41,822 nucleotides of DNA, from the IMG/VR virus record IMGVR_UViG_2897346870_000006; one strand, given 5' to 3'. Numbering within the stretch: position 1 is the first letter of the stretch; each line of letters starts with the position of its first letter. The notes under the pieces are model-generated. The model did not search any database. It worked only from the letters and a program-made list of their open reading frames with translations, and was not told the origin of the DNA. Source of the DNA: a virus (Duplodnaviria; Heunggongvirae; Uroviricota; Caudoviricetes). Shown here in pieces: positions 27,022 through 27,610 of the stretch. The position numbers and the translations under genes were made by a program.

Positions 27022-27149
27022 AACCCCACCTCGCAGACAAAGCGGGTGTAAATTAAGGGGATACTACGTATCGCAATAAAGGCAGAAACGTAACAGATTC
27101 GGAGTCAGTGAATAACTCAGGTATTGGGTTATCAGCTAATATCGAGACT

Positions 27150-27183
27150 CAAAAAATGGAAAAACCCGCTCGACGGCGGGTTT
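27150..27183 (-). terminator. Intrinsic terminator upstream of S, candidate tR'-like late terminator
   Basis: Hairpin AAACCCGC-tcgacg-GCGGGTTT followed on the minus strand by TTTTTCCATTTTTTG. Confidence 0.5.
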
Positions 27184-27610
27184 AAGCTGTGTGACGAAGT
27201 AACCACTCTTAACAGCATAACCAATTTTTTACGTACGTAAACTACTAAATGATATTTGTGAGAATGCCACCGAGTGTTCAAAACACCACCACAAATACAT
27301 AAGAAAACTTCAACAAATAACCAATGAATAATTTCCGATGTTATTTTTAGTTTGTTTAAATTAAGCTAAAGAATTATAGATCGCTTATAAATAAGTGCCA
27401 TTAATATAAATTAGCTAATAGATTTATTTTCGTTCAAACAAGAGCCATGAATAGGATTAGATAGAAAAGGTTTAGATAAAAATAGAGATCTACTTCACAA
27501 ATTAAATGAGAAACTAAAACTTACATCTTGAAATAATCGCATTGATTAGATGAATATTTATCGCGCAGTGACATCATTTTTTAATAATAGTTCAAAAAAA
27601 AGGGCGTACA

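Follow-up and report, generated by a model that had tools for sequence, protein, structure and literature searches.

The stretch of DNA analysed here, referred to below as the window, comprises 41,822 nucleotides (nt) of a phage of the class Caudoviricetes (IMG/VR virus record IMGVR_UViG_2897346870_000006), and the element in question is the late promoter from which its lysis genes would be expressed under the control of the antiterminator Q. The window is that of a lambdoid phage with its late region on the minus strand. The first late genes form a lysis cassette (25875-27021, minus strand) that consists of an S21-type holin, S (26806-27021; Pfam Phage_holin_2_1; ATG at 27021), an endolysin, R (26309-26806; Phage_lysozyme), and Rz (25875-26324; Phage_lysis). 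The Q gene, recognized from the list of open reading frames (ORFs) and from Pfam, lies on the same strand at 28882-29265 and encodes 127 amino acids (aa) from MRDIQ to a stop codon at 28882-28884. Between Q and the holin gene, a porin gene of the Lc/NmpC/OmpD type (27611-28693, plus strand; 360 aa; Porin_1, E 2e-151) is read from the opposite strand, with its ATG at 27611. In homologous phages, this porin is annotated as OmpD, NmpC or OmpC.

The gap between the holin and porin genes (27022-27610) is 589 bp long and has a GC content of 0.331, against 0.512 for the whole window. The value falls to 0.271 in 27246-27610, an AT-rich spacer that includes the porin upstream region. A first-pass annotation, made from the sequence without database searches, had described an AT-rich divergent region of about 590 bp at this place, with a minus-strand intrinsic terminator at 27150-27183, some 130 bp upstream of the holin start, and both are borne out. 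The terminator, at 27151-27183, is a hairpin with a stem of AAACCCGC (27183-27176) and GCGGGTTT (27169-27162) around the 6-nt loop CGTCGA, as found by a terminator scan. The hairpin from 27183 to 27162 has 8 pairs, 5 of them G-C, and is followed by the U-tract TTCCATTTTTT, which runs to 27151. It folds at -12 kcal/mol with z = -3.0 in a 46-nt context. From the end of the U-tract to the holin ATG at 27021, a leader (27022-27150, minus strand) of 129 nt was measured. In short, an intrinsic terminator stands between the promoter described below and the first late gene.

A scan for terminators over 7 kb returned 11 sites, compared to 7.2 +/- 2.9 expected from shuffled sequences, so a single match within 589 bp is within chance. 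The hairpin is set above chance because it is conserved, and not because of the scan match alone. Six porin phages that differ by 7-10% overall keep the hairpin and its flanks (27235-27101) at 99-100% conservation, and their neighbouring stretches have identities of 77-83% (27400-27340) and 66-70% (27100-27056). The hairpin and U-tract are also kept in ten phages, whose antiterminators are Q proteins of three subtypes or an unrelated protein. When the early transcribed 70-nt RNA is folded whole, its z of -0.57 is not significant; the hairpin alone stands out. An Rfam scan of 24000-31000 at E <= 1 gave two chance matches to small nucleolar RNAs and nothing for the region, and the supplements of a paper mapping E. 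coli 3' ends hold no entry for essD or for these coordinates.

Upstream of the hairpin, homology points to a late promoter. A search with 27022-27300 returned 360 phage records, most of which match only 27244-27160, at about 78% identity, and in those records the matched stretch lies under features annotated as promoter, terminator or Q. The matched stretch of the Shiga toxin (Stx) phage VT2-Sakai follows just after Q and is annotated with a putative late promoter (TTTACG-16-TATCAT), a putative Q-utilization site and a first rho-independent terminator. In H-19B, the homologous sequence likewise lies directly after Q. The minus-strand -35 hexamer of the window, TTTACG (27241-27236), is inside a perfect 14-bp palindrome, TTTACGTACGTAAA (27228-27241), and is separated by a 16-nt spacer from the -10 hexamer TATGCT (27214-27219), which aligns with the TATCAT of the annotated VT2-Sakai late promoter. 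These are followed by a predicted transcription start at A27207, placed within about 2 nt, and by an early transcribed region (+2 to +24; 27184-27206) that is 100% conserved among the six porin phages and includes TACTTC (+7 to +12; 27201-27196), a candidate sigma70-dependent pause element. Counted from this start, the hairpin and U-tract occupy +25 to +57. The start of the Sakai late promoter (PR') has been mapped by differential RNA sequencing (dRNA-seq) 258 nt upstream of a 3' end found by Term-seq (PMC7547250), and counting back from the second annotated Sakai terminator puts this start a few nt after TATCAT.

The closest known relatives of the arrangement are the DLP12 prophage (qsr') of E. 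coli K-12 and phage PA-2, in which the genes have the same order and strands as in the window (quuD - nmpC/lc - essD rrrD rzpD). DLP12 is 96.5% identical to the window across Q and 98% identical across the promoter-hairpin module, and PA-2 matches the Q-proximal interval of the window at 92.8%. The DLP12 porin is broken by IS5 (nmpC::IS5) and the prophage is defective, whereas the porin of the window is intact. Transcription starts were taken from a Cappable-seq table for K-12 (PMC4782308; plus-strand starts in U00096.2 coordinates), in which the late-sense starts are 573406, 575093, 575453, 576081, 576452, 576907 and 576971. Conversion to NC_000913.3 with an offset of +777 puts 8 of 8 local starts on purines, and the other offsets among the 13 tested (771-783) put 6 of 8 there at most. 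The offset corresponds to IS1 plus a 1-bp difference between the two genome versions. Start 576452 (577229 in NC_000913.3) aligns without gaps to A27207 of the window, 7 nt after the T of TATGCT. A late-strand sigma70 promoter with a mapped start is therefore present, by way of the Sakai homology and the 98%-identical DLP12 copy, and the late promoter is placed at 27241-27207 on the minus strand, directly upstream of the lysis genes. It was missed by a generic promoter scan with a threshold of 9 of 12 positions because its hexamers match the consensus at 8 of 12. A different site flagged by that scan, ATGGCA-17-TATAAT at 27401-27373, was set aside, as it has no backing from homology or from the K-12 starts.

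The Q protein of the window belongs to Pfam family PF06530 and covers positions 1-118 of the 118 in the profile (E 7e-54), that is, the full-length domain. This family is the Q21/Q933W family according to Yin, Kaelber and Ebright (bioRxiv 10.1101/651190). Over residues 1-120, the protein is 81% identical to the Q of VT2-Sakai and 84% identical to that of H-19B, and its similarity to the structurally solved Q21 is weak (E 4e-8). The same element thus holds a cognate Q gene, given the full domain, the identity to the Sakai and H-19B proteins and a promoter type that fits the Q subtype. An assignment to the phage 82 type, with the numbering of the phage 82 PR' (pause at +25, GCC at +15-17), is excluded by Pfam and by Yin et al. 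Residues 121-127 (IVANNSN-stop) have no homology to the 24-residue tail found in Sakai and H-19B. This short tail arose where Q was joined to the porin block, and the divergence falls exactly where the block begins. Within Q there is also a promoter-like TTTACA-16-TATTAT on the minus strand (29068-29041), and the K-12 Cappable-seq start 573406 (score 9.3) maps to position 29038 of the window, inside Q. RNA started at 29038 would take in the last part of Q and then extend, in antisense, to the IpeX-like region that follows the porin gene.

The promoter and Q are further linked by covariation. In ten phages, the early transcribed region and hairpin are 94-100% identical across Q subtypes whose proteins are only 43-56% identical. 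The segment from -36 to -7 of the same ten phages is 70-100% identical within a Q subtype and 39-65% identical between subtypes. Scanned for the motif conserved in the early transcribed region, IMG/VR yielded at least 120 contigs, and a PF06530 Q lies upstream on the same strand in 101 of 120 among the matches listed. Together with loci collected earlier, these matches gave 109 near-complete Q proteins that form seven clusters at 70% identity. Across the 109 loci (drawn from L001, L003, L007-L012 and L018-L137), each cluster has a perfect palindrome of its own, centred 23.5-24 nt upstream of the motif, or -27.5/-28 from the start, with the exception of the seventh, which consists of one locus whose palindrome is imperfect. 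The window type, TTTACG(TA/AT)CGTAAA, is found at 55 of the 57 loci of its cluster, and Sakai and H-19B carry the same element as TTTACGATCGTAAA. The other clusters have GCGGTCCGC (23 of 24 loci), GCGTACGC (18 of 18), TGTTATAACA (5 of 5), TGGAATTCCA (2 of 2) and ATTCGTTACGAAT (2 of 2).

This pairing is kept whatever cargo intervenes between Q and the promoter, over at least 17 classes of cargo size. Because it persists, promoter 27241-27207 is taken to be the cognate target of Q 28882-29265, and the pairing is the strongest evidence for this that sequence alone provides. Because the palindrome at 27241-27228, centred at -27.5, covaries with Q subtype, it is nominated as the candidate Q-binding element for the Q subtype of the window. 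The pause and terminator module, for its part, may be interchangeable between Q subtypes, even with an antiterminator of the lambda Q family. In phage phi467 (L010), a 276-aa protein of that family (PF03589; 551-1381) stands in place of a PF06530 Q, and the same early transcribed region is found at 2501-2554, behind two reverse-strand genes and with a hairpin stem that is altered yet paired. To judge from this phage, the module seems to be exchangeable between unrelated Q families.

The distance between Q and the promoter is the result of an insertion. About 60 bp of the canonical joint between the end of Q and the promoter is replaced by 1.66 kb, from about 28905 down to about 27246, after which the promoter module resumes at AGTTTACG. 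The inserted cassette consists of the porin promoter region, the porin gene and an IpeX-like 3' untranslated region (3'UTR), all on the opposite strand. It has the marks of a phage moron, namely its orientation, an upstream GC content of 0.27, its own plus-strand terminator and variable presence. The -35 hexamer at 27241 and the Q stop at 28882 are 1,640 nt apart, and the promoter is not in the usual position directly downstream of Q, a position that the mechanism does not demand. The first-pass annotation was right to ascribe the separation to the porin. Its term "relocated" would be better put as an insertion that pushed Q and promoter apart, which appears from the loci compared to be the majority state in this Q family. 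Among the matches listed, 101 loci could be sorted by distance: Q is adjacent (<150 nt) at 25 and separated by 633-2,480 nt at 76, and the largest separated class, that of the porin (1,672-1,691 nt), accounts for 34 contigs. A 141-aa ORF at 24210-24635 (plus strand), downstream of the lysis cassette, also lies on the opposite strand to it, in a stretch of 31-32% GC, and looks like another moron.

Sakai, H-19B, 1720a-02 and Stx2_499 carry no cargo between Q and promoter, and other cargo takes the place of the porin in SfII, Stx2a_1447, Stx1_14040 and many IMG/VR contigs (cargo loci L018-L137 from IMG/VR, L007, L008, L010 and L011). The inserts fall into at least 17 size classes (633-2,480 nt; GC 0.31-0.44), and the main ORFs are on the reverse strand in 15 of 17. 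Examples include a KAP NTPase that matches the PADLOC entry PDC-S20 (E 1e-177), an HNH protein that matches PDC-M68A, an NA37 nucleoid-associated protein beside a second large ORF, an alpha/beta hydrolase and several proteins without a family. The joint between Q and promoter is apparently a hot spot for cargo, with porins and candidate anti-phage defence genes among the genes that it receives. Phage Lambda_ev066 (L006) has a Q that is 87.5% identical to that of the window and lacks the promoter-hairpin module; its sequence after Q (2878-3010) holds TGTTAGAAT and a terminator that resembles the second (tR') hairpin of Sakai, and a reverse-strand lipocalin gene follows.

For the Q933W branch, these two sets of observations can be joined in a reading that is offered tentatively, at a little below even likelihood: that the Q site is a subtype-specific inverted repeat, and that the joint between Q and its site is a preferred landing place for cargo. 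Such a site may overlap the -35 hexamer, with its centre about 27.5 bp upstream of the start, and may be a perfect palindrome that differs from subtype to subtype (TTTACGTACGTAAA, GCGGTCCGC-ATTCGTTACGAAT). The literature found defines a Q site for Q21 and for lambda only. If the reading is true, an inverted-repeat site implies a binding geometry unlike that of the tandem direct repeat in the Q21 structures.

The porin arrangement itself is widespread. A 2.6-kb stretch of the window is 99.9% identical to Escherichia phage PhiR49_1, and the same block occurs in about 35 other deposited phages at 90-99% identity. The records of PhiR49_1 and of near-identical phages are complete phage genomes with named propagation hosts. 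At least 80% of the block of Q, porin, promoter and holin is found in 2,394 of 5,426 complete E. coli genomes. The separation of Q from the promoter by a porin cassette is therefore already known and very common in E. coli prophages, such that the first-pass inference, though correct, describes a familiar arrangement.

Several characterized systems can be set beside the window. In phage lambda, the terminator tR' lies at about +194. Lambda late transcription begins at a constitutive promoter and is subject to an early, sigma70-dependent pause, a short terminated RNA is made, and Q allows read-through into S, R and Rz (PMC7547250; bioRxiv 10.1101/651190). The lambda order of PR', qut, 6S RNA and tR' follows the same logic as the window with unrelated sequences, and lambda Q is of an unrelated family, PF03589 (bioRxiv 10.1101/651190). 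The closest mechanistic model is phage 21, which has a Q of the same family (PF06530), an S21-type holin and a lysozyme-family endolysin. Within about 90 bp, phage 21 has its -35, the elements QBEu and QBEd, the -10, the start, the pause element and a terminator from +3 to +50 (PMC6606751). The window shares this compact layout, with a start at 27207, a hairpin from +25 to +46 and a U-tract to +57, yet the phage 21 cassette has no DNA similarity to the window. The phage 21 promoter starts 7 nt after the Q stop. In addition, phage 21 has a direct repeat (ATTGAGCA AATGAGCA) between -35 and -10 as the site for its Q, whereas the element in the window is an inverted repeat that overlaps the -35.

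The closest characterized promoter is PR' of the Stx phages 933W, VT2-Sakai (Sp5) and H-19B, with a homologous -35 palindrome, -10, early region and first hairpin. The Stx promoter overlaps the end of Q, and the 24-residue tail of that Q is missing from the window. Stx phages have their cargo (tRNAs, stx) downstream of tR', and the window has its cargo upstream of the promoter. The 258-nt PR' RNA of Sakai is processed to the small RNA StxS (PMC7547250). The window has neither the +258 terminator nor the StxS sequence, and homology ends after the first hairpin. For DLP12, the lysis operon is described as being under a phage Q-type antiterminator, according to the citing text of PMC7918800 (Rueggeberg 2013).

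Very likely, the region 27244-27150 forms the Q-dependent late cassette of this lambdoid phage, whose Q is of the Q21/Q933W family, and the porin cassette stands between that region and the Q gene. This agrees with the first-pass proposal of a unit of late promoter, Q site and terminator upstream of S, and it draws on the observed homology to the Sakai and H-19B promoters, the family of the cognate Q, the DLP12 start at 27207, the hairpin, its conservation and the covariation of promoter with Q subtype. The compact layout that it has in common with phage 21 and, at second hand, the reported Q control of the DLP12 lysis operon also speak for it. The course of events can be modelled on phages 21 and lambda and the Stx phages, from which the pause, Q binding, the efficiency of the terminator and Q-dependent read-through are borrowed. 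RNA polymerase with sigma70 would start near A27207 from the weak promoter TTTACG-16-TATGCT and probably pause in the conserved early region (+2 to +24), with TACTTC as the candidate element. Without Q, it would stop at the hairpin and U-tract (27183-27151) to give an RNA of about 50-57 nt. Q, which would be made from the early transcript, would bind the promoter at a site particular to its subtype, for which the palindrome TTTACGTACGTAAA (centre at -27.5) is the most likely candidate. It would then load onto the paused polymerase, which would become resistant to the terminator and read on through S, R, Rz and the remainder of the late operon.

A number of observations weigh against this interpretation. 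The relative read score of the DLP12 start equivalent to 27207 is only 1.7, a weak signal close to the threshold of detection, and it was recorded in a defective K-12 prophage without induction and not in the phage of the window itself. The -35 and -10 match the consensus at only 8 of 12 positions, and TACTTC, which has the A at position 2, has C for T at position 6, where its relatives have TACATT or TACTTT. The promoter holds no direct repeat like the TGAGCA of Q21, and the Q site is placed by covariation alone. Two phages, ev099 (L013) and Turner (L014), carry GCTGG for GCGGG in the 3' arm of the hairpin (at the equivalent of window 27167), a mismatch that should weaken the terminator, as judged from the stem. 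As for the role of the hairpin as tR', a conserved terminator does lie at the right place, but its role as the only tR' is weakened by Sakai, where the mapped tR' is the second terminator at +258 and not the homologous first hairpin. Because the Sakai PR' transcript reaches the +258 terminator (PMC7547250), the homologous first hairpin is not fully efficient in Sakai lysogens. No further minus-strand terminator-like site was found by the terminator scan in 27022-27150, so a second terminator of the Sakai type is absent before S.

The last point of this kind is a much stronger late-sense K-12 start, 576081 (score 90), which lies 370 nt upstream at the equivalent of A27577. It has a -10 hexamer TATTAT at 27589-27584 (minus strand), is 34 nt from the porin ATG, and its promoter is 100% conserved in the six porin phages. 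This start and that of the porin may be the two sides of one bidirectional promoter. RNA begun at 27577 would run through the AT-rich spacer and also meet the hairpin at 27183, which may therefore double as an insulator. It has to be weighed, then, whether the hairpin is mainly an insulator against transcription from the AT-rich porin region and against early read-through, with lysis expressed chiefly from the 27577 start or through RpoE. Besides the difference in start scores (90 versus 1.7) and the conservation of the 27577 promoter, this would fit with RpoE control of the DLP12 lysis cassette, as reported in the citing text of PMC7918800 (Rueggeberg 2015), and with the finding that, given added sigma70, the Q of phage 82 can engage polymerase in vitro at a pause site far from the promoter (PMC4914094). 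However, NusA antagonized the loading of Q82 at long nascent RNAs (PMC4914094), the palindrome that follows Q subtype is at a fixed distance from the 27207 start and not from the 27577 start, and the K-12 scores are again those of a defective, uninduced prophage. An insulator role is in any case compatible with a role as tR', and Sakai, H-19B, 1720a-02 and Stx2_499 have the hairpin behind a late promoter that has no AT-rich region or cargo beside it. The insulator explanation is for these reasons thought unlikely, and the Q-dependent cassette at 27244-27150 is preferred to it.

The interval between Q and porin deserves separate attention, given that, under the canonical layout, 28700-28880 would hold the late promoter, Q site and tR' immediately behind Q, and the element upstream of S would be something else. 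The promoter of lambda, phage 21 and the Stx phages begins no farther than about 10-20 nt from the stop codon of Q, and a minus-strand hairpin at 28743-28711 followed by CTTTTTCG could pass for tR'. This hairpin is the first hairpin of the porin 3'UTR read on the other strand, and with CTTTTTCG it could stop Q-sense (early) read-through that leaves Q. The interval (28694-28881) is the plus-strand 3'UTR of the porin, with a structured RNA like IpeX and a terminator at 28832-28849 followed by a T-run at its end. On the porin strand, 28694-28865 folds into five stem-loops at -53.6 kcal/mol with z = -6.1. IpeX is a 167-nt RNA that is part of the DLP12 porin transcript (PMC12197685), and the fold fits with it; 28694-28865 is probably its homologue.

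In short, the stretch after Q is a porin 3'UTR, probably with a small RNA, and not a late promoter. The promoter scan found no minus-strand promoter-like site in 28694-28881, the interval is matched in only 36 phage records, and, unlike 27244-27150, it is not homologous to a late promoter of this Q family. A late start in 28700-28880 had been named in the first-pass annotation as the outcome that would speak against its proposal. No late-sense K-12 start was recorded between 573406 and 575093, and thus none between quuD and nmpC. The canonical placement is accordingly regarded as highly improbable. Still less credence is given to the idea that the promoter-hairpin module has lost its activity and accompanies the lysis genes as a relic, with late genes expressed only by antiterminated read-through from the early promoter: the weak -35 and -10, the imperfect pause hexamer and the weak start signal would suit it, but the module is 99-100% conserved while its flanks vary, the phage has retained an intact Q with the full domain, Q subtype and palindrome stay paired across at least 17 cargo classes, and near-identical phages (PhiR49_1, 99.9%) were deposited as complete genomes with propagation hosts.

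The textbook mechanism of the late switch is unchanged by these results. For annotation, the late promoter of these common prophages belongs upstream of essD/S and not after quuD/Q. With regard to layout, Q would act over 1.7 kb, with a convergently oriented gene between it and its promoter, and the joint between Q and promoter tolerates, and apparently attracts, diverse cargo. Two aspects may be less well known, namely that cargo between Q and promoter is the majority state and that the palindrome is specific to the Q subtype. The pairing of Q subtype and palindrome provides a testable candidate DNA site for the Q933W-type antiterminators that control the expression of Shiga toxin.

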